Shown: positions 31,879-62,383 of the stretch, one piece after another
Layout: every line of letters starts with the position of its first letter
Position numbering within the stretch: position 1 is the first letter of the stretch
Origin: Candidatus Kaiserbacteria bacterium
GTDB taxonomy: Bacteria > Patescibacteriota > Minisyncoccia > Phycocordibacterales > UBA2100
Reading direction: 5' to 3'
Assembly (NCBI GenBank): GCA_003164215.1
Contig: PLSR01000003.1
Span: 28,892-92,891 of the forward strand
Length of the DNA: 64,000 nucleotides
Notes under the pieces: generated by a model
What the model saw: the letters and a program-made list of their open reading frames with translations, nothing else
Databases searched by the model: none
Told to the model about the DNA's origin: nothing
Translations under genes and position numbers: made by a program

Positions 31879-31933
31879 ATGAGCAAGGCGAAACCTTGCT
31901 CATTATAATTTGAGCAAGGTTTCGCCTTGCTCA
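31879..31933. repeat. inverted REP-like doublet (REPIN-like)
   Basis: ATGAGCAAGGCGAAACCTTGCTCAT-TATAATT-TGAGCAAGGTTTCGCCTTGCTCA: two copies of the hairpin in opposite orientation. Confidence 0.6.
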
Positions 31934-34718: not shown

Positions 34719-35324
34719 ATGGATCCGCTTGAACGCCTCTCCGCGCTTTTTGAACGCTTTCCGGGCATCGGTCCGCGACAAGCGAATCGCTTCGTGCAAT
34801 TTCTCTTGCGAAGCTCACCAGCGGTGCGTCGTGAGTTGATCGATTCGATCGCCGCGGTCGGATCCGGTGTCCATCAGTGTCCGCAGTGCATGCGCTACCA
34901 CGCCGGTGTATTGAAGGTCTGTGGCATCTGTGATAACCCGCGACGCGATTCGAAGACCCTGGCGATCATCGCAACCGATACCGATCTTTCTGCGCTCGAG
35001 CGTTCCGGAACATTTCGCGGATATTATTTCGTGATGGGTGGAACCGTCTCTCTCGCATCCGAAAAGGGCGATAATTTGCGAACACAGCAACTCCTTGATT
35101 CGCTCTCGAAGCGTGCTGATGACGGTCTTGAAGAGATCATTCTTGCATTTCCTGCCAATCCCGAAGGCGATGCGACACTTATATTCGTTCGTGAACATTT
35201 GGAACCAGTCGCGCAAGTTCTGGCTGTAAAAATCACGTCTCTCGGCCGCGGCCTTTCGACTGGAAGCGAGCTTGAGTACGCCGATCCGGACACGATTCGA
35301 AGCGCCTTCGAGAGTCGGAAGTGA
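34719..35324 (+). CDS. recR: recombination protein RecR
   Basis: 201 aa; HhH (FPGIGPRQANR), C4 zinc finger (CPQC...CGIC) and Toprim domain. Confidence 0.85.
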   Translation: MDPLERLSALFERFPGIGPRQANRFVQFLLRSSPAVRRELIDSIAAVGSGVHQCPQCMRYHAGVLKVCGICDNPRRDSKTLAIIATDTDLSALERSGTFRGYYFVMGGTVSLASEKGDNLRTQQLLDSLSKRADDGLEEIILAFPANPEGDATLIFVREHLEPVAQVLAVKITSLGRGLSTGSELEYADPDTIRSAFESRK

Positions 35325-35340
35325 GGCGGGCGTGAATCCT

Positions 35341-35396
35341 CGAATCCCGAAGCTCCGACCTTGGAATCCCTTAAGGTCAGAGCTTAAGGATTCGTC
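35341..35396. repeat. palindromic repeat (GACCTTGG..CCTTAAGGTC / GAATCC..CTTAAGGATTC family), intergenic copy
   Basis: imperfect palindrome sharing about 75% identity over ~55 nt with an element inside uvrB at 56430-56486. Confidence 0.5.
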
Positions 35397-35404
35397 GGGT
35401 TCAT

Positions 35405-35434
35405 TCAAAAACCCGCCTTTCGGCGGGTCTTGTT
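35405..35434. terminator. bidirectional intrinsic terminator between convergent recR and rplU
   Basis: AAAAA-CCCGCC-TTTC-GGCGGG-TCTTGTT: the hairpin has an A-tract on one side and a U-rich tract on the other. Confidence 0.55.
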
Positions 35435-35753
35435 ACGGCAATGCTGTGATCTTCACTTTGAGGTATGGTTGACGATGGCCGCGCTTCTTGAAATAGCGGC
35501 TCTTCTGGCGATATTTGATGACAGTAACGGTCTGGTTGCGTCCCTCTTCGATGACCTCTGCGGACACTTTTGAGCCCTTGAGATACGGCGCGCCGACTTC
35601 CGTCTTCGCACCGTCGTCGGTCAAGAGGACATTCTCAAATGAAATTGCGTCGCCTTCCTTATGCTCGCCTTTTATCTTTTCAACCTTAAGGACAGTGCCC
35701 TCGGCGACGAGGTACTGCTTTCCGCCCGTTTCAATTATTGCAATCTTGGCCAT
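35433..35753 (-). CDS. rplU: 50S ribosomal protein L21
   Basis: ORF trimmed to MAKIAIIETGGKQYLV, the L21 N-terminal signature. Confidence 0.85.
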   Translation of the reverse strand: MAKIAIIETGGKQYLVAEGTVLKVEKIKGEHKEGDAISFENVLLTDDGAKTEVGAPYLKGSKVSAEVIEEGRNQTVTVIKYRQKSRYFKKRGHRQPYLKVKITALP

Positions 35754-35811
35754 ATCGCTTGTTTTGTCGGGCAACTATAACCTATCTGCAAGATTTCTGC
35801 AAATTATAGGG

Positions 35812-39295: not shown

Positions 39296-39700
39296 TTATG
39301 AGATCATCCCTCCCTCGTCTTTTCGTGACCTGGTGAGCGGAGCCGCGAGCGGCAACAGCATGACGAGCGCATATCCGATCCACAAGTTCCAATTCGCGTA
39401 CATCTGCACTCCGCTGAACGGAAGCGTGAATACCGCATCGAGTGCGAGCACGGTGACCGTCCAAAGAACAGCATACGGCAAAATATCCTTCCACGAATTG
39501 AAACGGAGCGCCCTGCCGGCGATGGTCGTTATGATGACGAGCATGACCAGCCGCTCCGCGATCGCCGGAATACCGCCGGCAAATCCGTAAATAGCAAGAG
39601 CATTAGAAAAGAGATACATGATCGCATATATCACAATTCCCCAGGAAAGACGGGAGAGATATTTCATACGTACATTATGTACGACAAACGGACGCACCAT
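39296..39700 (-). CDS. small hypothetical membrane protein (about 4 TM)
   Basis: 134 aa hydrophobic ORF directly upstream of the MFS-like gene. Confidence 0.4.
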   Translation of the reverse strand: MVRPFVVHNVRMKYLSRLSWGIVIYAIMYLFSNALAIYGFAGGIPAIAERLVMLVIITTIAGRALRFNSWKDILPYAVLWTVTVLALDAVFTLPFSGVQMYANWNLWIGYALVMLLPLAAPLTRSRKDEGGMIS

Positions 39701-48463: not shown

Positions 48464-48536
48464 TGGACCGTGCCGGTTTCGAACCGGCTACCTCCGCATT
48501 GCAAATGCGGCGCTCTACCAATTGAGCTAACGGCCC
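48464..48536 (-). tRNA. tRNA-Ala (anticodon UGC); CCA not encoded
   Basis: folded by hand: 7-bp acceptor stem with G3:U70, D-loop AGCTCAATTGGTAGAGC, anticodon stem-loop CCGCA-TTTGCAA-TGCGG, T-arm GGTTCGAAACC, discriminator A. Confidence 0.85.
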
Positions 48537-48772
48537 ATTAGTTTATCTTTAAGAAAACGACGGCCTGCGGCCGATTTGAAATACAACTCTCGTTTTCTTG
48601 CCTGCTCAAAGGTATCAAAATTCTCCGTATATGCAACAACGAAATCTTTCATTCTCGAGGTAGTTCGCGTGTGGCCGCTTCGGTGATCCTTCAAACGTTG
48701 CTGAAGATCGGATGTCATCCCTTTATATAATTTACCATCAACATCTTTTAAAACGTACGTGGTGAATTTCAT
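48527..48772 (-). CDS. GIY-YIG nuclease family protein (YhbQ/UPF0213-like)
   Basis: ORF trimmed to MKFTTYVL...; GIY-YIG core (YVLKDVDGKLYKGMTSDL...R...H); last 10 nt including the stop overlap the 5' end of tRNA-Ala. Confidence 0.65.
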   Translation of the reverse strand: MKFTTYVLKDVDGKLYKGMTSDLQQRLKDHRSGHTRTTSRMKDFVVAYTENFDTFEQARKRELYFKSAAGRRFLKDKLMGR

Positions 48773-51962: not shown

Positions 51963-54620
51963 CTATTTCTTGGCTCGTTTTAAGACTCGTTTCAGGTAGT
52001 AGCCAGTGTGCGATCCATCGGTCTTCGAAACTTCTTCGGGTGTGCCCTTCGCGACGATCTTGCCGCCGCGCGCGCCGCCTTCAGGGCCCATGTCGATGAT
52101 GTAATCCGCACATTTGAGGACGTCGAGATTATGTTCGATGACGATCACCGTATTACCTCGTTCGACGAGCTTCTGCAAAATGTCGATCAGCTTGTTCACG
52201 TCGTCATAATGCAAACCGACCGTCGGCTCATCGAGAAGATAGACGGTCTTCGTCATGAGCGGTCGGTATAATTCCGACGCGATCTTCACGCGCTGTGCTT
52301 CGCCGCCGGAAAGTGTCGTCGCGCTCTGTCCGAGCTCGAGATAGCCAAGACCAACGTCAGCAAGTGATTTCAAGCGGTCGGTCACCGCCGGTATATCTTC
52401 GAAAAAGTCGATCGCTTGTTCGACCGTCATCGTCAGCACTTCGTAAATATTCTTCTTCTTGTATTTGACATCGAGCGTTTCCTTCATAAATCGCTTGCCG
52501 TTGCAGACATCGCAGGTCACATAAACCGTCGGCAGGAAGTGCATTTCGACAGCGACGAGCCCGTTGCCCTGGCACGCCTCACAGCGCCCGCCCTTCACAT
52601 TGAATGAAAATCTGCCCGGTCCCCAGCCTCGCGCGCGTGCTTCCTCGCTCATCGCAAACATGTCACGAATGTGCGTCCAGGCACCCGTGTAGGTCGCCGG
52701 ATTCGAGCGTGGCGTGCGACCGATCGGCGATTGATCAATGAGAATGGAGCGTCCGAGATATTCGGTGCCGCTGAATTCCTTACAGTTGTAAATTTTTGCC
52801 GTACGGAAGCGTTTGTCGAATTTTGCGAGCAAGTTGCGATGCAAAACTTCGTAGAGAAATGTTGATTTTCCAGAACCGGAGACGCCGGTGATGCAGACGA
52901 GTTTAGAAAGCGGCACGTCAACGTTCAGATCTTTCATATTGAACTTGCTTGCCCCGCGTATCTTGATCTTGCCGCGGTCGGCGGTGCGGCGTTTCTCCGG
53001 GATCTCAATAGCCGTTTCCTCACGTAAATATGACAGCGTACGTGAACCCGATTTGTTGGTCTTTGCAGTAAGCAGATCTTCGAGCCAACCGGAAGCGACG
53101 ATATTGCCACCGTGCACGCCCGCGCCCGGACCGATATCAACGATATAGTCCGACGCATAGATCGTGTCCTCGTCGTGCTCGACGACGATGACGGTGTTCC
53201 CCAGGTCTCGCAGGTGCTTCAGGGTCTCGATAAGCTTGTCGTTATCGCGTTGATGTAAGCCGATCGTCGGTTCATCGAGCACGTACAGTGCTCCGACAAG
53301 GCCTGAACCGAGCTGTGATGCCAGACGGATACGCTGCGCCTCTCCGCCCGAGAGTGTATTTGCTTTGCGGTCGAGCGTCAGATATTCGATTCCGACATTG
53401 AGCATGAATTGCAGGCGCGACGTGATCTCTTTGTTGATGCCGCGCGATATGTCGGTTTCTTTGGCCGAAAGTTTGAGATGATCGAAAAACGATTGCGCAT
53501 TTTCGATCGACAGCGAGGAAAGACTCACGATGTTCATGCCCGTTGCTGGACCTTTATGATCCGCTGGCTCTTTAACGGGGCCCAGAAATACGTTCAACGC
53601 TTCGGGTCGCAGACGCGCACCTTTGCAGACCGGGCACTCTTCATCACTAAAGAGATAGAGCGTGCCGAGGCCTTTGCATTCGGGACAAGCACCATACGGA
53701 CTATTGAATGAGAAAAGGCGCGGCTCGACTTCGGGAAATGAAAAGCCATCATACGGGCACATAAATTTCGCCGAGACGATGTGCGGCGCACCTGCTGCGT
53801 CAGTGATCTTGACCAAACCTTCCGATTCGTGGAGCGCGCGCTCGATCGCCTCGCTCGCACGCTCTCGGGCAGCCTTTGAATCGTCGACGAATTCCGAGAC
53901 AAAGATCTCATCAACAATCACATCGATATCATGCCGATCATTCTTCTCAAGGATGATACGTTCGCGCAGTGATTTTTCCTCGCCGTCAATGACGACTTTC
54001 TCGTAGCCCTTGTTCAAGAGATCATAGAGCAACTGGTAGTACTCGCCTTTGCGACCAACGACGATCGGCGAACTGATGCGGATCTTCGCGTCCGTAACTC
54101 CAGCGATCAAGGTCTGACCTTTCGATTTCCCCAAGGTCGGCCCTTTTGACTTTCGGGCCTTTTCAACGATATCAAGAACAGATGCGAGTATTTCTTCGTT
54201 CGATTGTTTCTTCACTTCCCTGCCGCATTCCGGACAATGCGGATGACCGATACGCGCATAGAGGACACGCAGGTAGTCATAGATCTCGGTGATCGTCGCA
54301 ACGGTCGAACGCGGGTTGTTGGAACGCGATTTTTGATCAATAGAAATTGCGGGCGAAAGGCCGGTGATCTCGTCGACATCGGGCTTCTGCATTTGCCGCA
54401 AGAATTGCCGCGCATAGGCGGAAAGCGACTCGACATATTTGCGCTGACCTTCGGCGAAGATCGTATCGAACGCGAGCGATGACTTCCCCGAACCCGAAAG
54501 TCCGGTGAATACCACCATTTTATTGCGCGGGATCTCCACGTTCACGTTCTTCAAGTTGTGCGTCCGCGCGCCCTTGATGACGATCTTGCCAGCGTCGAAG
54601 TTTTTTGATTTATCATCCAT
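51963..54620 (-). CDS. uvrA: excinuclease ABC subunit A
   Basis: start set to [25 protein letters not shown]; two ABC ATPase modules with Walker [10 protein letters not shown] and GVSGSGKST and zinc-finger inserts. Confidence 0.9.
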
Positions 54621-54758
54621 ATGTATACGTATTTTCCACTTAGAAACTCGGCTCTCAAGTACTTTCGTCCACACCAACTCCGACCCCCGCTTTGCACTAG
54701 GGGTTGGCTTGTCCCGAGGGAGCTCGCTCCTTTTCGGGGTATGGGCACTATACCATAG

Positions 54759-55685
54759 TCAGAAAATCGCCGCTTCTTCTGTCAGGGTGACGCCGAATTT
54801 CTCATGCACGGCGATCTTGATCTCCATCGCAAGATTGCGAACGTCATCTGCCGTCGCATTGCCGGTATTCACGATGTAATTAGGATGCTGGAGGCTCGCC
54901 ATCGCATCGCCGACTTTTGCTCCTTTCATGCCGGATTTTTCGATAAGCCAACCGGCGGGCACGCGGCCTTCGCGCGCCGTCGTATTCTTTTCTTGTTCGA
55001 ACATTTCTTGCACGTGCCGCGGAGCTCGAGGATTCATAAAAAAAGAGCCGGCAGCTTTGACATTCTGCAGATGGCGTTTCTCGCGCTCGGCAATCGTTCG
55101 TTCAATCAGATTCAGACTTTCTTCACGATCAACACCTCTAAGATTCATAAACTCCGCATCCGTGATAATCCATTCAGGATGATCTTTAAAATAGGAGTGT
55201 CGATAGGCAAAATTACATTCCGCGTTCGTGAATTCTTTGATTTCTTCAGTATTTGCATTTACAGCCCGGACAAGAGTGACAAAATCTTTGATTTCGGAAC
55301 CGAAAGCTCCTGCATTACCACGTATTGCACCACCAACACTTCCAGGGATTCCTGCAAGTTTCTCCCACCCACCAAGTGTCGCATCTGACGCACCTCTGAT
55401 TGTTGAAAGTAAATTCACTCCCGCACAAACCCCGTTATCTCCGCCCCCAAAGTCATAACCTTCAAGTAATATATGAACAACAAGCGCATCGATTCCGCTA
55501 TCGGACACCAAAACATTACTCCCACCTCCAAGCACAACTAGCTCGATATCTCTGGTTTTACTCCATGAAATGGCTTCGCGGATTTCTGAAATTGATTTTA
55601 CATCGACAAAGTATTTCGCCTTTCCACCGATCTTGAATGTCGTAAGTAGTGCGAGCGGAACATCTTGTCGAATATCCAATGTCAT
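54759..55685 (-). CDS. murB: UDP-N-acetylenolpyruvoylglucosamine reductase
   Basis: start set to [21 protein letters not shown]; FAD-binding PCMH domain and MurB C-terminal domain. Confidence 0.85.
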
Positions 55686-55689
55686 ATCG

Positions 55690-57774
55690 TTACTCTTTGA
55701 GTTTCGCCTTTTTCTTCGCCGCCGGATCTTTCGGCGGATTTTCAAGGCGTGAAATTTCATCGCGCAGTAGGGCGGCGGTTTCGAAGTCGAGGGCATCAGC
55801 CGCCTTATGCATTTCCTGGCGTTTCTCTTTGATCAATTTCTTTACATCGCCACCATATGCCGCAACGTCGGTCTGCGCCAGGTCGGATACCGCGCGCGTG
55901 CGTGCCTTTTGAATATCGCCGACGATGTCGTGAATGCGTTTGATGATCGTTTGCGGAGTAATGCCATGTGCCTTGTTGTATGCGATCTGTATATCGCGAC
56001 GACGATTCGTTTCGCCAACGGCACGGTCAAGTGAGCCCGTCATATGATCTGCATACAGAATGACGCGTCCTTCGACGTTGCGTGCCGCACGTCCAATAGT
56101 TTGAATGAGGGACGTCTCACTACGAAGGAATCCTTCTTTGTCCGCGTCGAGAATTCCCACAAGCTCGACTTCGGGAAGATCGAGTCCTTCGCGCAAGAGG
56201 TTCACGCCCACAAGCACATCGAATTCCCCACGACGAAATGCGGTAAGGATCTCGATACGTTCGATCGTTTTGATGTCGCTGTGAATGTATTTGGCGCGGA
56301 TCTGTTTTTCGACCAGGAATTGGGCAAGGTCTTCAGCCATCTTTTTGGTGAGCACCGTTACCATACTTCGTGCTCCGCGTGCCGTGACCTTTTCTGCCTC
56401 CGTAATGAAATCTTTGACCTGCCCCGGGTACGGATTCCCAAAGGTCTGACCTTGGGCTCCCTTAAGGTCGGACCTTGAGGAATCCGCCGACCCACTTACC
56501 ACCGGCCGGATAACGATCTCCGGATCAACGAGACCCGTCGGACGAATAACTTGCGAGATCGGTTCGCCGCTGCGCTCAAGTTCAAATGTGCCGGGTGTTG
56601 CTGATGTATAGATCGTCTGCCCGTGGCGCTTTTGGAATTCATCGAATTTGAGCGGACGATTGTCCAATGCACTTGGAAGTCGAAAACCATATTGTATGAG
56701 CGTCTCTTTGCGGGCACGATCGCCCGCGTACATCCCGCCAATCTGCGGGATCGTCACGTGCGATTCATCAATAACGGTAAGGAAATCCTTCGGAAAATAA
56801 CTCAAAAGTGTATAAGGTGGTTCGCCGGGTTTTCTTCGATCGAAATGGCGAGAATAATTCTCGATACCGTTGCAATAGCCGAACTCCTTGATCATCGAAA
56901 TATCTTGTCGTACGCGGCGCTTGAGGCGCTCATGCTCGATCACTTTGTCAGGGCCCTCCAATTGCTTCAACCGTTCGGCAAGCTCCTGTTCGATATCGGC
57001 GACCGCCGCATCTTGAACGTCTTTCGGCGTAACATAATGCTTTGCGGGAAAGAAGAATACTGAATCGACAGATCGCTCAATGACGCGTGTGATCGCGTTG
57101 ATCTCCTCGATCTTCGTGACTTTACCACCCATGAGATCAATGCGGTGAATGACGCGTTCATTCGCCGGCATGACTTCAATGGTCGAACCGAGTGCACGAA
57201 AGGTGCCTGGCGAAAGATCCCCTGCAACCCGCTCGAAATACATGCCGATCAGTTTTCGCGTGAGCGCGGCACGCGTCATCGCCTCTCCTTTTGCAATTTT
57301 CAAATTCACCTTTTGATATTCAATCGGGCTACCGAGTCCATAGATGCACGAGACCGACGCGACGACAATAACGTCATCGCGCGAAAGCAGAGCTTGTGTC
57401 GCTGCATGTCGCAGACGTTCGATGTCTTCGTTCACCATCGCTTCCTTCTCGATGAACGTGTCCGTTACCGGCATATATGCCTCCGGCTGATAGTAGTCGT
57501 AGTACGAAACGAAATAGTGCACAGCCGCATCTGGAAAGAACTCGCGATATTCGGCAGCGAGTTGTGCGGCGAGCGTCTTATTGTGTGCGATGACCAAGGT
57601 CGGCTTCTGCCATTGTTCAATGACATTCGCGATCGTGAACGTTTTACCCGAGCCCGTCACGCCCAAAAGCGTCTGGTCGCGCGTACCCGATTTAAGCCCA
57701 TTAACTAAGGACGTTATCGCCTTCGGCTGATCCCCCGCCGGTGTATAGTCCGATTTGATCTTGAACTGCGCCAT
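55690..57774 (-). CDS. uvrB: excinuclease ABC subunit B (carries an in-frame ~24-aa insertion encoded by a palindromic repeat)
   Basis: 694 aa; helicase motifs (GVTGSGKT, DESH), beta-hairpin, UVR C-terminal domain; insertion VSGSADSSRSDLKGAQGQTFGNPYP relative to canonical ..RPV-(A/E)-GQ(V/I)DDL.. Confidence 0.9.
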   Translation of the reverse strand: MAQFKIKSDYTPAGDQPKAITSLVNGLKSGTRDQTLLGVTGSGKTFTIANVIEQWQKPTLVIAHNKTLAAQLAAEYREFFPDAAVHYFVSYYDYYQPEAYMPVTDTFIEKEAMVNEDIERLRHAATQALLSRDDVIVVASVSCIYGLGSPIEYQKVNLKIAKGEAMTRAALTRKLIGMYFERVAGDLSPGTFRALGSTIEVMPANERVIHRIDLMGGKVTKIEEINAITRVIERSVDSVFFFPAKHYVTPKDVQDAAVADIEQELAERLKQLEGPDKVIEHERLKRRVRQDISMIKEFGYCNGIENYSRHFDRRKPGEPPYTLLSYFPKDFLTVIDESHVTIPQIGGMYAGDRARKETLIQYGFRLPSALDNRPLKFDEFQKRHGQTIYTSATPGTFELERSGEPISQVIRPTGLVDPEIVIRPVVSGSADSSRSDLKGAQGQTFGNPYPGQVKDFITEAEKVTARGARSMVTVLTKKMAEDLAQFLVEKQIRAKYIHSDIKTIERIEILTAFRRGEFDVLVGVNLLREGLDLPEVELVGILDADKEGFLRSETSLIQTIGRAARNVEGRVILYADHMTGSLDRAVGETNRRRDIQIAYNKAHGITPQTIIKRIHDIVGDIQKARTRAVSDLAQTDVAAYGGDVKKLIKEKRQEMHKAADALDFETAALLRDEISRLENPPKDPAAKKKAKLKE
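56430..56486. repeat. palindromic repeat element inside the uvrB coding sequence
   Basis: GGATTCC..GACCTTGG-GCTC-CCTTAAGGTC..GGAATCC imperfect palindrome; same family as 35341-35396. Confidence 0.55.
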
Positions 57775-57819
57775 GGAGACTACTGTAGCAGGATTGCGCG
57801 AATATATAAATCTCGACGT

Positions 57820-60325
<2,506 letters not shown>

Positions 60326-60373
60326 GACGTGAAATATAGCACCTGCCTTCGCCCAAGGCTACGGGCGGACGGG

Positions 60374-60406
60374 TAAAAAAGAGACCGCCATGTCGCCACG
60401 GCGGCC
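60374..60406 (-). terminator. intrinsic terminator/attenuator hairpin 50 nt upstream of tyrS and 127 nt downstream of cfa
   Basis: minus-strand GGCCGCC-GUGGCGACAU-GGCGGUC followed by UCUCUUUUUU. Confidence 0.45.
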
Positions 60407-60532
60407 TGAGTCTAGGGAGGAAACGCCCAAGGAGGGCATATGCGGCAGGTCATGCCACACCTCCTTCACCGTAGCAGTTCATCCAAATTTGTCTATGTGC
60501 GAGAGGTGTGGATAACATAAACCCCCATCGTG

Positions 60533-61648
60533 CTAACGAACTGCTGTATACCGCTCTCGCGCTCCTACCTTGGTGAATACGATCTGCCATAGTTGTAGAT
60601 TGCGGACTCGGAAGGAAGCTGCGCTTGACAGCAGATAATATTTCCACATGCGATAGAAACGATCGTCGTAACTGCTTTTGACAGAATCCCAATTCGTATC
60701 GAAGTTGGAGAACCAAGCCATAAGGGTCGTGTCATAATCCGGACCGAAGTTGTGCCAATCTTCCATAGAGAAAAGATCACCCGCCGCACGTCCAATCTGT
60801 TCGATCGATGGAACGAGCCCGTTGGGGAAAATGTATTTTTCGATCCAGGGGTCGGTGCCATAGGTCGACTTATTACCGCCGATCGTATGTAAAAGAAAAT
60901 ACCCGTCTCTTTTCAAGAGCGCATGTACCTTCTCCATATAGGAACGGTAATTCTTATAGCCAACATGTTCGAACATGCCGATCGAGATCACATGGTCATA
61001 CGCGCCTTCGTGCTCGTGATAATCCTGGAGAAGCGTCTCGATCGGTAAACCTCTCCGGTGTTCGTCGGCATACGCCTTCTGTGCGCGCGACACGGTGAGC
61101 CCTGTGCCGGATGCATCATACCGCTCTGCGGCGAACCGCAAGAAACTTCCCCATCCGGATCCGATATCGAGAATGTGCTGCCCCTTTTCCAATCCGATCT
61201 TTCTACACACTAAGTCGAGCTTCGCTTCCTGTGCCTCGTCAAGTGTCGTCGCGTTATTCCAATAGCCGCACGAGTAGACGAGCCGCTCGCCGAGCATTGC
61301 CGCATAGAGATCGTTGCCGATGTCATAGTGACGCTCACCGACCTCGAACGCGTGTCGTTTCTGCAGATTGATGATCCGTGCACGTAGATAGTGCCAGATG
61401 ACGGCGGGATTGATCCCGACCTTTTGTTCCAGATTACCGCTCAAGATCTTTGCGATAAGTTCATCGACGCGCTCCGCATCCCACCAGCCATCCATGTACG
61501 ACTCACCGAAACCCAGGGTCCCGCTTGCAAGCACCCGATCATAAAAGCGCGCATCGTGGACCTGAATATCCCACGTTCGATTACCGTTCACTTCAATGCC
61601 CGCCTTCGCGAAGGCGTCTCTGAATATTCGCTCCGTTTTTGCGGTCAC
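60533..61648 (-). CDS. cfa: cyclopropane-fatty-acyl-phospholipid synthase
   Basis: 371 aa; SAM-binding motif ILDIGSGWG and CFA-synthase C-terminal region. Confidence 0.8.
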   Translation of the reverse strand: MTAKTERIFRDAFAKAGIEVNGNRTWDIQVHDARFYDRVLASGTLGFGESYMDGWWDAERVDELIAKILSGNLEQKVGINPAVIWHYLRARIINLQKRHAFEVGERHYDIGNDLYAAMLGERLVYSCGYWNNATTLDEAQEAKLDLVCRKIGLEKGQHILDIGSGWGSFLRFAAERYDASGTGLTVSRAQKAYADEHRRGLPIETLLQDYHEHEGAYDHVISIGMFEHVGYKNYRSYMEKVHALLKRDGYFLLHTIGGNKSTYGTDPWIEKYIFPNGLVPSIEQIGRAAGDLFSMEDWHNFGPDYDTTLMAWFSNFDTNWDSVKSSYDDRFYRMWKYYLLSSAASFRVRNLQLWQIVFTKVGARERYTAVR

Positions 61649-61816
61649 AGCGCGGTCATTCTAGGCATCATTCGTGAAGGGATCGTGAGCAGAAGTAACG
61701 AAGGTATTCGTCTTCATGAAAGCTTAATCATCGATTTGGCATGATGTAGGCATGCAAAGGGTCGATCGGTTTTCATTTGGTACGTCTATTAATCTAATTT
61801 CTTCACAACATCCTGT

Positions 61817-62383
61817 ATGAACAAAAATATCGTTATCGGCGGTATTATCGTCGTTATTATCATTCTGATCGGTTTCTGGTATGTCGCATCTATGACCCCT
61901 ACCACACCGGCTGTGGGCACATCTACTACTGCGACAACAACGGCAACGTCTACCGCGACGACCGTGCCGGCTACTACGGCACCAGCGACGGTCGCGACCA
62001 AGAGCGCATTCAAAAGTATCTTTACGCAGTCCGGAAATCACGAGTGCACCTATCAGCAAGTCGGAGCGTCCACGCAAACGACGAGCGTCATTTACATCTC
62101 CGACGGAAAGATGCGCGGCGAATTCCGCACTACGGGTACCGTCACTTCATCGAATCTCATGATCTACAACGGCGGTTATCTCTATAGTTGGGTCGAGGGC
62201 ACAACAGTCGGAAAGAAGACGAGCATCAATTCCCTTGCGGATCTGCCGGCGGTCATTCCGCAAGATCTCACGAGCGGAGCGATATACGGCACGGCGAGCG
62301 ACAGCGTGGGCTGGGACTGCCAAGATTGGTTGACGGACAACAGTATTTTCGTCATCCCGACGTACGTGAAGTTTACGACGTAG
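61817..62383 (+). CDS. hypothetical membrane-anchored secreted protein with Thr/Ala-rich linker
   Basis: 188 aa; N-terminal TM (IVIGGIIVVIIILIGFWYV), TTATTTATSTATT linker, ~120-aa domain with two Cys. Confidence 0.45.
   Translation: MNKNIVIGGIIVVIIILIGFWYVASMTPTTPAVGTSTTATTTATSTATTVPATTAPATVATKSAFKSIFTQSGNHECTYQQVGASTQTTSVIYISDGKMRGEFRTTGTVTSSNLMIYNGGYLYSWVEGTTVGKKTSINSLADLPAVIPQDLTSGAIYGTASDSVGWDCQDWLTDNSIFVIPTYVKFTT

Follow-up and report, generated by a model that had tools for sequence, protein, structure and literature searches.

The stretch of DNA considered here, in the following called the window, comprises 64,000 nucleotides of contig PLSR01000003.1 (positions 28,892 to 92,891) from assembly GCA_003164215.1 of a Candidatus Kaiserbacteria bacterium, an ultra-small member of the Patescibacteria, and the UvrB matches also indicate a Kaiserbacteria-like host lineage. 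The subject of this analysis is a palindromic DNA element that lies in frame within the uvrB gene of this window. The 694 codons of the gene include the peptide IRPVVSGSADSSRSDLKGAQGQTFGNPYPGQVKDF, and the longer segment reads DPEIVIRPVVSGSADSSRSDLKGAQGQTFGNPYPGQVKDF. In a phmmer search against all PDB chains, the translated open reading frame (ORF) matched chain 9gy7_E with an E-value of 2.4e-230, and its orthologues carry the Pfam domains UvrB, UvrB_inter, Helicase_C, ResIII and UVR.

A model that had seen only the letters of the window and a list of its ORFs had proposed that this UvrB possesses an extra in-frame segment and that this segment is encoded by a palindrome. The alignment with solved structures, the codon alignment with orthologous genes and the inverted repeat itself confirm this. 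The phmmer alignment with 9gy7_E is split at the insert, with residues 1-425 of the query corresponding to residues 2-427 of the chain and residues 448-678 to residues 426-656. The same split is seen with chain 3uwx_B and, according to the match table, with 2fdc_A, 1d9z_A and 1t5l_A. Therefore, approximately 22 residues (426-447) have no counterpart in the solved UvrB proteins, which just show RP-x-KGQ at the insertion junction. A codon alignment with the empty alleles of two other loci, L003 and L125, defines an insert of 54 nt in phase 0 (Table 1), so that the extent of 56430-56504 and the peptide given in the original prediction were essentially right. If the 54 nt are taken out, the sequence VVSGSAYP remains, a loop of eight residues that has the same length in 57 of 121 close orthologues. 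In comparison to canonical UvrB the loop is 22-25 residues too long, in comparison to its own clade 18 residues. The insert is an imperfect palindrome, with inverted-repeat arms of 23 nt (56431-56453 and 56464-56486) that are 87% complementary. As RNA it folds with -44.1 kcal/mol (z = -2.78), and only one out of 200 shuffled sequences folds as well. The 20-mer arm of this palindrome occurs a single time in the window (0 expected).

The AlphaFold2 model of UvrB, computed from an alignment of 60 sequences, reaches a moderate mean pLDDT of 70 and a pTM of 0.62. In this model the insert is located between a strand (residues 419-423) and a helix (452-465), at the junction before the C-terminal Helicase_C domain, and residues 429-447 exhibit a pLDDT below 50 and no secondary structure. 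The earlier idea of a surface loop thus agrees with the model, in which this part is predicted to be disordered. The most economical reading of the model is that the insert would be a tolerated surface loop of UvrB. Since the remainder of the gene outside the insert is intact and highly conserved, UvrB with the insert presumably still works. That the palindrome resides in a repair gene is correct; the attribute essential, which the original prediction had added, goes beyond what is known of uvrB.

The insertion had also been supposed to be lineage-specific, and the alignment of orthologues reveals a patchy distribution. Among the 121 Kaiserbacteria-like UvrB orthologues the length of the loop is bimodal (8 versus 20-26 residues), and the two states are scattered over a neighbour-joining tree. 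The window and the likewise filled orthologue P0001 (96% identity) are sister to the empty P0003, and the filled P0002 is nested among the empty P0004-P0010. Locus L008 is filled as well. The proteins P0003-P0010, which share 86-89% identity with the UvrB of the window (BLASTP), all lack the insert, and the absence is confirmed at the DNA level for L003 and L125. In L003, no match to the repeat family of the uvrB element (family 1) is present anywhere in the 18-kb tgt-uvrB-murB-uvrA locus. Every filled orthologue that can be read as DNA is palindromic at this position, and orthologues with the insertion but no palindromic signature, which would have spoken against the original prediction, were not encountered among them. 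Palindromes can cause assembly problems, and one might therefore suspect an artefact of sequencing or assembly, although nothing specific points to one here. This explanation can practically be discounted, as metagenomes and metagenome-assembled genomes (MAGs) whose assemblies are separate share the codon position of the insert (L004, L008, L001/L002, L038, L080). These loci are approximately 20% diverged in their flanks, their elements differ by paired substitutions and the reading frame is intact.

The palindrome is not confined to uvrB. Six occurrences of the half-site AAGGTCNGACCTT were counted in the window (0.07 expected), and they form three pairs, which are located in uvrB, in the spacer between recR and rplU and in uvrA (Table 1). 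The uvrA copy lies in a variable loop that is 2-4 amino acids longer than in relatives, and at the same site of uvrA a family member is also present in L080 (KSKGPTLKNSKGRTL). The uvrC, alaS and mnmA sites that are filled elsewhere carry no element in the window. One could assume that hairpin-primed repair or replication slippage created the palindrome within uvrB itself and that it shares no descent with the other copies. The UvrB loop is indeed hypervariable, with non-palindromic or odd-length inserts in P0036, P0033 and P0100, and no target duplication is visible. However, the same 22-nt core and the same stem architecture are found in unrelated genes and spacers of this and other genomes, and together with the excess of half-sites in the window this makes a local origin very improbable.

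Table 1. Palindromic elements of the window and genes discussed in connection with them (position 1 is the first nucleotide of the window).
Feature	Position	Strand	Details	Evidence
uvrB (694 aa), host of the insertion	55690..57774	minus		ORF; phmmer against PDB; Pfam domains of orthologues
In-frame insert of 54 nt in uvrB, GATTCCTCAAGGTCCGACCTTAAGGGAGCCCAAGGTCAGACCTTTGGGAATCCG	56431..56484	minus	codons D431-P448 = DSSRSDLKGAQGQTFGNP, phase 0	codon alignment with empty alleles L003 and L125
Junction peptide of the UvrB insert (example)			GAQGQTFGNPYPGQVK	
Full hairpin element in uvrB	56424..56493	minus	sense = coding strand	cmsearch 69.9 bits, E = 1.1e-17
Second strong copy of the element	35333..35402	minus	spacer of convergent recR (34719-35324, plus) and rplU (35433-35774, minus)	cmsearch 64.9 bits, E = 3e-16
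Diverged in-frame copy in uvrA (51963..54677, minus)	54090..54161	minus	half-sites retained, loop different	17 bits
Second, unrelated coding palindrome in tgt (57820..59079, minus)	58659-58727		in frame; arms of approximately 21-32 nt, GATTTCGTAAATCC / GGATTTACGAAATC	
Small stand-alone GIY-YIG ORF	48527..48772	minus	81 aa from the start MKFTTYVLK; adjoins ddl, near uvrC	

The occurrence of the 22-nt core GAYCTTAAGGGANNCCAAGRTC was analysed in one genome per GTDB species, in a metagenome collection and in a viral collection. The genomes contain 33 loci, with approximately four chance matches estimated. All but one of these loci carry labels of Patescibacteria lineages (Nomura-, Vogel- and Kaiserbacteria, Paceibacterota, Saccharibacteria) or of unclassified bacteria; the remaining one is a Bacilli record that lacks the flanking stem and is probably a chance match. 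The metagenomes contributed 84 loci, while the viral contigs did not contain a single match and hence give no evidence of a phage vector. After removal of duplicates, 94 distinct contexts remained, with up to five exact copies of the core in one MAG (CAINVT01); one locus, L086, shows no difference from the window in the 922 bases that were compared. The view of the palindrome as a repeat element is therefore well founded, as a spacer copy and a diverged uvrA copy exist in the window and more than 90 distinct copies in unrelated genes of the candidate phyla radiation (CPR). An Rfam scan of the region returned only sub-threshold eukaryotic microRNA hairpin models (23 bits, gathering score 60). 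A literature search on palindromic, MITE (miniature inverted-repeat transposable element) or in-frame elements of CPR bacteria or Patescibacteria yielded nothing relevant, and the CPR coding hairpin family appears to be undescribed within the literature searched.

The architecture of the element was derived from an alignment of 36 sequences (A1). It consists of an outer stem, an inner stem GACCTT/AAGGTC, an AA bulge on the 5' side, two G-C pairs (GG/CC) and a GANN tetraloop. Everything from the inner stem to the loop is constant and the outer stem is variable; the size ranges from approximately 36 to 70 nt within the family. Columns 18-24 and 47-53 of the outer stem are paired in approximately 100% of the copies. 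Double changes are frequent; for instance, the pair 22/49 is formed by U-A in 25 copies and by C-G in ten, and the pair 24/47 occurs in five pair types. The covariation score of 0.329 is not reached by any of 500 column shuffles (0.146) and drops to 0.07-0.14 if the partner is slid by one to three columns. Tandem 13-mer half-sites were considered as a conserved feature and rejected, since in the GC-stem variants cccgccaGACCTT...AAGGTCtggcggg only the inverted symmetry is retained and not the direct one.

The same exchange of pairs is visible between orthologous copies. At the UvrB site the stem reads AAGGTC/GACCTT in the window, AAGATC/GATCTT in L004 (96% identical protein) and AAGCTC/GAGCTT in L008. 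The amino acids change freely while the pairing is kept, and therefore the constraint acts on the nucleic acid and not on the peptide. Between orthologous TopA copies with near-identical immediate flanks (approximately 76-81% identity over about 430 nt), three stem pairs are swapped (tcg/cga versus caa/ttg), which looks like a replacement or conversion by another family member and not like stepwise drift.

Inside genes, the reading of the element is strongly biased. Approximately 70% of the contexts (66 of 94) lie inside ORFs of at least 180 codons, and 57 of these 66 copies are read in the sense frame that encodes DLKGxQG, four in the sense +1 frame and five in antisense, so that 61 are in sense orientation. 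In contrast, the 25 copies in short ORFs, which are probably spacers, show no frame preference (8, 4, 3 and 10 copies across the four open frames, eight of 25 being DLKGxQG). Two of the six frames have a stop codon in the core, and the DLKGxQG frame is the only one that cannot gain a stop from the variable stem position. It yields a glycine-rich, hydrophilic peptide, R-S-D-L-K-G-x-Q-G-P-T-L. Given this preference for one frame and hosts that are mostly nucleic-acid enzymes, it might be argued that the peptide is the selected unit, i.e. that DLKGxQG forms a functional loop motif and that the palindrome is incidental. We regard this as highly unlikely. The stem undergoes compensatory changes while the encoded residues vary (S, Q, P or F before DLKG; PT, LA, LG or QS behind the motif), about a quarter of the copies reside in spacers or short ORFs, and antisense and +1 copies exist within genes (L012, L045, L078, L050). 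Moreover, the loop is predicted to be disordered, and no DLKGxQG peptide encoded by non-palindromic DNA was seen among these copies.

According to their Pfam domains, the hosts are UvrB (10 copies), TopA (9), TGT (8), LigA (6), RecJ (5), UvrC (3), UvrA (2) and AlaRS (2). Single copies were found in genes for an HhH-GPD glycosylase, a ComFC-like protein, MnmA, PheRS-beta, a class-I aminoacyl-tRNA synthetase (aaRS), an aminotransferase, ATP synthase, RseP, alanine racemase and an FAD oxidase. If only independent sites are counted, genes of DNA repair or replication hold approximately nine of about 27, which is a clear excess. This excess has to be read with two caveats. Copies might survive preferentially in genes that are long and conserved, and tgt, uvrB, uvrA and uvrC lie next to each other in the genomes concerned. 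The neighbourhood tyrS-tgt-uvrB-murB-uvrA-(small ORF)-uvrC-ddl is conserved in Kaiserbacteria-like genomes (51963-62383 of the window compared with L001, L003, L004 and L122-L125). Each of the genes tgt, uvrB, uvrA and uvrC of this cluster carries hairpin elements in one lineage or another, and the apparent bias in host genes is therefore inflated.

The choice of hosts is also an argument for a function of the hairpin in the cell. As a cis element, it could form a structure in the mRNA of genome-maintenance and tRNA-modification genes that marks these genes or regulates them jointly, for example through recognition by RNase III or an RNA-binding protein. Alternatively, it could be a DNA signal for uptake or recombination in these naturally competent bacteria, comparable to the DNA uptake sequences (DUS) and uptake signal sequences (USS) or to the NTS/Ssn hairpins. 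Bulge, loop and inner stem are constant on a covarying outer stem across lineages from Nomurabacteria to Saccharibacteria, the orientation in genes is nearly always sense, and UvrB, TopA, TGT, LigA, RecJ, UvrC, UvrA, the glycosylase and the ComFC-like protein dominate among the hosts. In addition, the window encodes a small GIY-YIG protein, and in Neisseria hairpin repeats cut by small single-strand DNases of the GIY-YIG type modulate transformation (PMC11893778). On the other hand, the element is dispensable, since half of the close UvrB orthologues and approximately 80% of the TopA orthologues lack an insert and L003 has none in the tgt-uvrB-murB-uvrA region. Its positions differ between lineages (three sites in UvrB alone), copies decay into remnants, and three copies per 64 kb are far below the density of uptake sequences. 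The published pattern of the Ssn-related motif (SRM) occurs at chance level, the GIY-YIG gene is not situated beside the elements, and no Rfam family matches. Finally, the bias in host genes may reflect survivorship in long, conserved and weakly expressed genes and the counting of inherited copies. All in all, a function for the host appears unlikely to us. The same holds for the more specific proposal of a conserved structured signal that is kept preferentially in genome-maintenance genes (uvrA, uvrB, uvrC, ligA, recJ, topA, glycosylase and comFC) and in tRNA-modification genes. Such a signal might be a hairpin that is recognised during natural transformation, in DNA uptake, in recombination or by a single-strand nuclease, or it might be an mRNA tag for the joint regulation of these genes, and the peptide would be a tolerated by-product.

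Beyond what the original prediction had seen, the insertion site in UvrB is a recurrent hot spot for several palindrome families. In L050 it is occupied by a copy in frame +1, and in other orthologues by sub-families such as AAGGACNGTCCTT with the peptide PRTVLKGSQGPSL. An unrelated palindrome family with arms of the GGATTTACGAAATCC type is found at this site in L122 and L124 and, with perfect arms of 26 bp, in L123. It is this second family to which the tgt palindrome of the window belongs, which is situated in a variable TGT loop that is eight amino acids longer than in the 96% relative L004. A similar situation exists in TopA: among 120 orthologues (83-100% identity), approximately 95 have the basal loop and approximately 22 carry inserts of 12-14 additional residues that belong to at least four peptide types. 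At this TopA hot spot (P0124-P0243, between FET and ITLEC; L058, L067, L069, L114), other inserts are also present, for instance SHHPALKGTPPQAGGE in six orthologues, IPLLSEEGAGGGNSEKKE and a double insert of 24 residues. As judged from the protein sequences, these other insert types suggest that still more coding-repeat families exist in the CPR. In a methyltransferase dependent on S-adenosylmethionine, lineages differ in the orientation in which one and the same site is filled (L007/L078). Altogether, the picture is one of elements that are repeatedly gained, replaced and degraded at a limited number of loops, which are either permissive or preferred.

We therefore favour, with a probability of roughly 0.65, the reading that the UvrB insert is a copy of a non-autonomous hairpin family that resembles the Rickettsia palindromic elements (RPEs), is widespread in Patescibacteria and lands repeatedly in permissive loops. 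It builds on the repeat family, the covariation, the en-bloc replacement of stems, the polymorphism of presence and absence, the survival in one frame and the repeated use of hot spots. Copies might be placed or overwritten by copy-and-paste or by gene conversion on a folded single strand. Selection would then remove every copy that breaks a gene. What survives would therefore be copies in spacers or copies that lie in frame where a conserved protein tolerates a longer surface loop, nearly always in the one frame that never holds a stop codon. In the UvrB of the window, the 54 nt would be translated into a loop of 18 residues, predicted to be disordered and presumably neutral for the protein, in front of the C-terminal helicase domain. 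When the identity along uvrB was scanned in sliding windows, neither a locally raised similarity between filled alleles nor a recombination tract was detected.

Several observations weigh against this reading. The mobility claimed in the original prediction agrees with the repeat family and its patchy presence, but the usual signs of a mobile element were not identified. No target-site duplication is evident at the UvrB site beyond a possible CG dinucleotide (window, L004, L008 and L001 compared with the empty L003 and L125), and the boundaries cannot be fixed to the base because empty and filled alleles are only approximately 75% identical. No transposase was identified (no systematic search of the window or the loci was made), and neither were terminal inverted repeats distinct from the stem. 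The copy density is modest with three copies in 64 kb, and the neighbour-joining tree has short internal branches, which leaves the number of independent gains versus losses uncertain. Since the search pattern itself imposes part of the constancy of the core, the outer stem is the informative part. Stop codons account for an at most two-fold frame bias. A purely neutral filter would also not obviously be expected to produce a constant loop and bulge, a nearly exclusive sense orientation in genes and an accumulation in UvrA/B/C, TopA, LigA, RecJ and an HhH-GPD glycosylase.

Some further structures of the window resemble the element or adjoin it. A 16-residue segment of UvrA (53523-53585) is located exactly where the UvrA proteins of L010, L110 and L096 carry the hairpin element, and it is common to the window, L001, L003 and L004. 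It may be an old, decayed insertion; as a further hairpin copy it was rejected, since it is not convincingly palindromic now. In a spacer between two minus-strand ORFs, a perfect palindrome with arms of 23 nt (TGAGCAAGGCGAAACCTTGCTCA / TGAGCAAGGTTTCGCCTTGCTCA) is present at 31880-31933. It has the AAGG...CCTT flavour of the element and scores 25.7 bits with the element model, with a different loop, and it may represent another hairpin-repeat family or a terminator. The copy in the recR-rplU spacer adjoins a separate GC-rich hairpin with a T run (approximately 35407-35433), which looks like the terminator of rplU. Some GC-stem variants elsewhere, for instance in L018, are themselves followed by a T run.

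If the favoured reading is true, the Patescibacteria would be the second and much larger group with reduced genomes, after Rickettsia, in which palindromic repeats occur in housekeeping coding sequences. Coding palindromes would then look like a recurrent outcome of reductive, host-dependent lifestyles and not like an oddity of Rickettsia. Inserts of 14-18 residues would inflate or scramble the variable loops of marker proteins such as UvrB, TopA, LigA, TGT and the aaRSs, which affects CPR alignments, phylogenies and structure prediction. Hundreds of independent insertions, together with empty alleles at the same codons, would also constitute a natural experiment that shows which loops tolerate approximately 18 extra residues. 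The repeated use of hot spots, the one-frame bias and the enrichment in repair genes could point to a mobilising machinery or to a transformation-linked function in these DNA-scavenging organisms.

Among the known systems, the coding palindromes of Nematomorpha mitochondria (PMC6649704) and the PARCELs (PMC2996958) resemble the CPR element in that DNA with dyad symmetry is translated and that evidence points to the palindrome, not the peptide, as the unit that is propagated. However, the former are organellar and up to 284 bp long (PMC6649704), and the latter are tandem repeat domains of 25 residues in surface proteins (PMC2996958) and not single inserts in housekeeping enzymes.

Repetitive extragenic palindromic (REP) sequences and REPINs with their RAYT proteins (IS200/IS605-like, Y1) as well as MITEs are, like the CPR element, short non-autonomous hairpins with conserved pairing, a constant recognition part and a variable remainder, and some spacer copies of the CPR element are terminator-like (L018). 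REPs are extragenic by definition, whereas most copies of the CPR element (66 of 94) lie in long ORFs. REPs also have a 5' motif of the GTAG type, which the CPR element lacks. No RAYT or insertion-sequence partner was identified for the CPR element (a systematic transposase search was not made), and neither a target-site duplication nor terminal inverted repeats beyond the stem were found.

The uptake sequences DUS and USS of Neisseriaceae and Pasteurellaceae are reported to share with the CPR element an excess in genome-maintenance genes, a preference for orientation or frame in genes and the occurrence of inverted pairs as terminators. Uptake sequences are 9-12-mers that occur approximately once per kb and do not need base pairing. 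In contrast, the CPR element is a covarying hairpin with three copies in 64 kb.

A further parallel is offered by the naturally transformable Neisseria, where hairpin repeats in single-stranded DNA are the substrate of small Ssn nucleases of the GIY-YIG type (PMC11893778). Both the NTS/dRS3 repeats and the CPR element are hairpins clustered around particular genes, and the outer arms GGATTCC...GGAATCC of the latter resemble dRS3 (ATTCCC-N8-GGGAAT). However, the NTS repeats flank genes, whereas the CPR copies are translated within them. The small GIY-YIG ORF of the window has a conserved counterpart at the corresponding position of L001 (74% identity). No family-1 copy lies within 1 kb of it, the distance being 5 kb, and among 124 element-centred loci GIY-YIG homologues exist in just three distinct contigs (five loci including duplicates). 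The SRM pattern HGTCWYN(0-2)YYVSBRHN(0-5)WNVSBRGN(0-2)RNCYNB has one match in the window (position 39316), which coincides with no element, and a mean of 0.7 matches in shuffled sequences. Neither the pattern nor the proximity tests link the GIY-YIG gene to the CPR element.

The closest parallel is provided by the RPEs. In the account given by a summary of the original work, these are palindromic repeats of approximately 150 bp that reside in spacers and, with unusual frequency, in frame in unrelated housekeeping ORFs, encode a conserved peptide that the function of the protein tolerates and have no known transposase (Ogata et al. 2000, as summarised in PMC10969869). The CPR element shares with them several copies in the window, including one in a spacer, the in-frame position in unrelated ORFs (57 of 66 as DLKGxQG) and a host-dependent host with a reduced genome. 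It differs in having a constant bulge and tetraloop. To our knowledge, the use of the same loop by several families and the excess of repair and replication hosts, as seen in the CPR element, have not been described for RPEs. The size (54 nt here, 36-70 nt in the family, versus approximately 150 bp) and the hosts (many CPR classes of Patescibacteria versus one genus of a different phylum) are different as well, and no sequence relationship has been demonstrated, although the comparison does not include a direct alignment to the RPE-1 to RPE-10 consensus sequences. Because of its size, its hosts and the lack of a demonstrated sequence relationship, the CPR element is an analogue and not a member of the RPEs.

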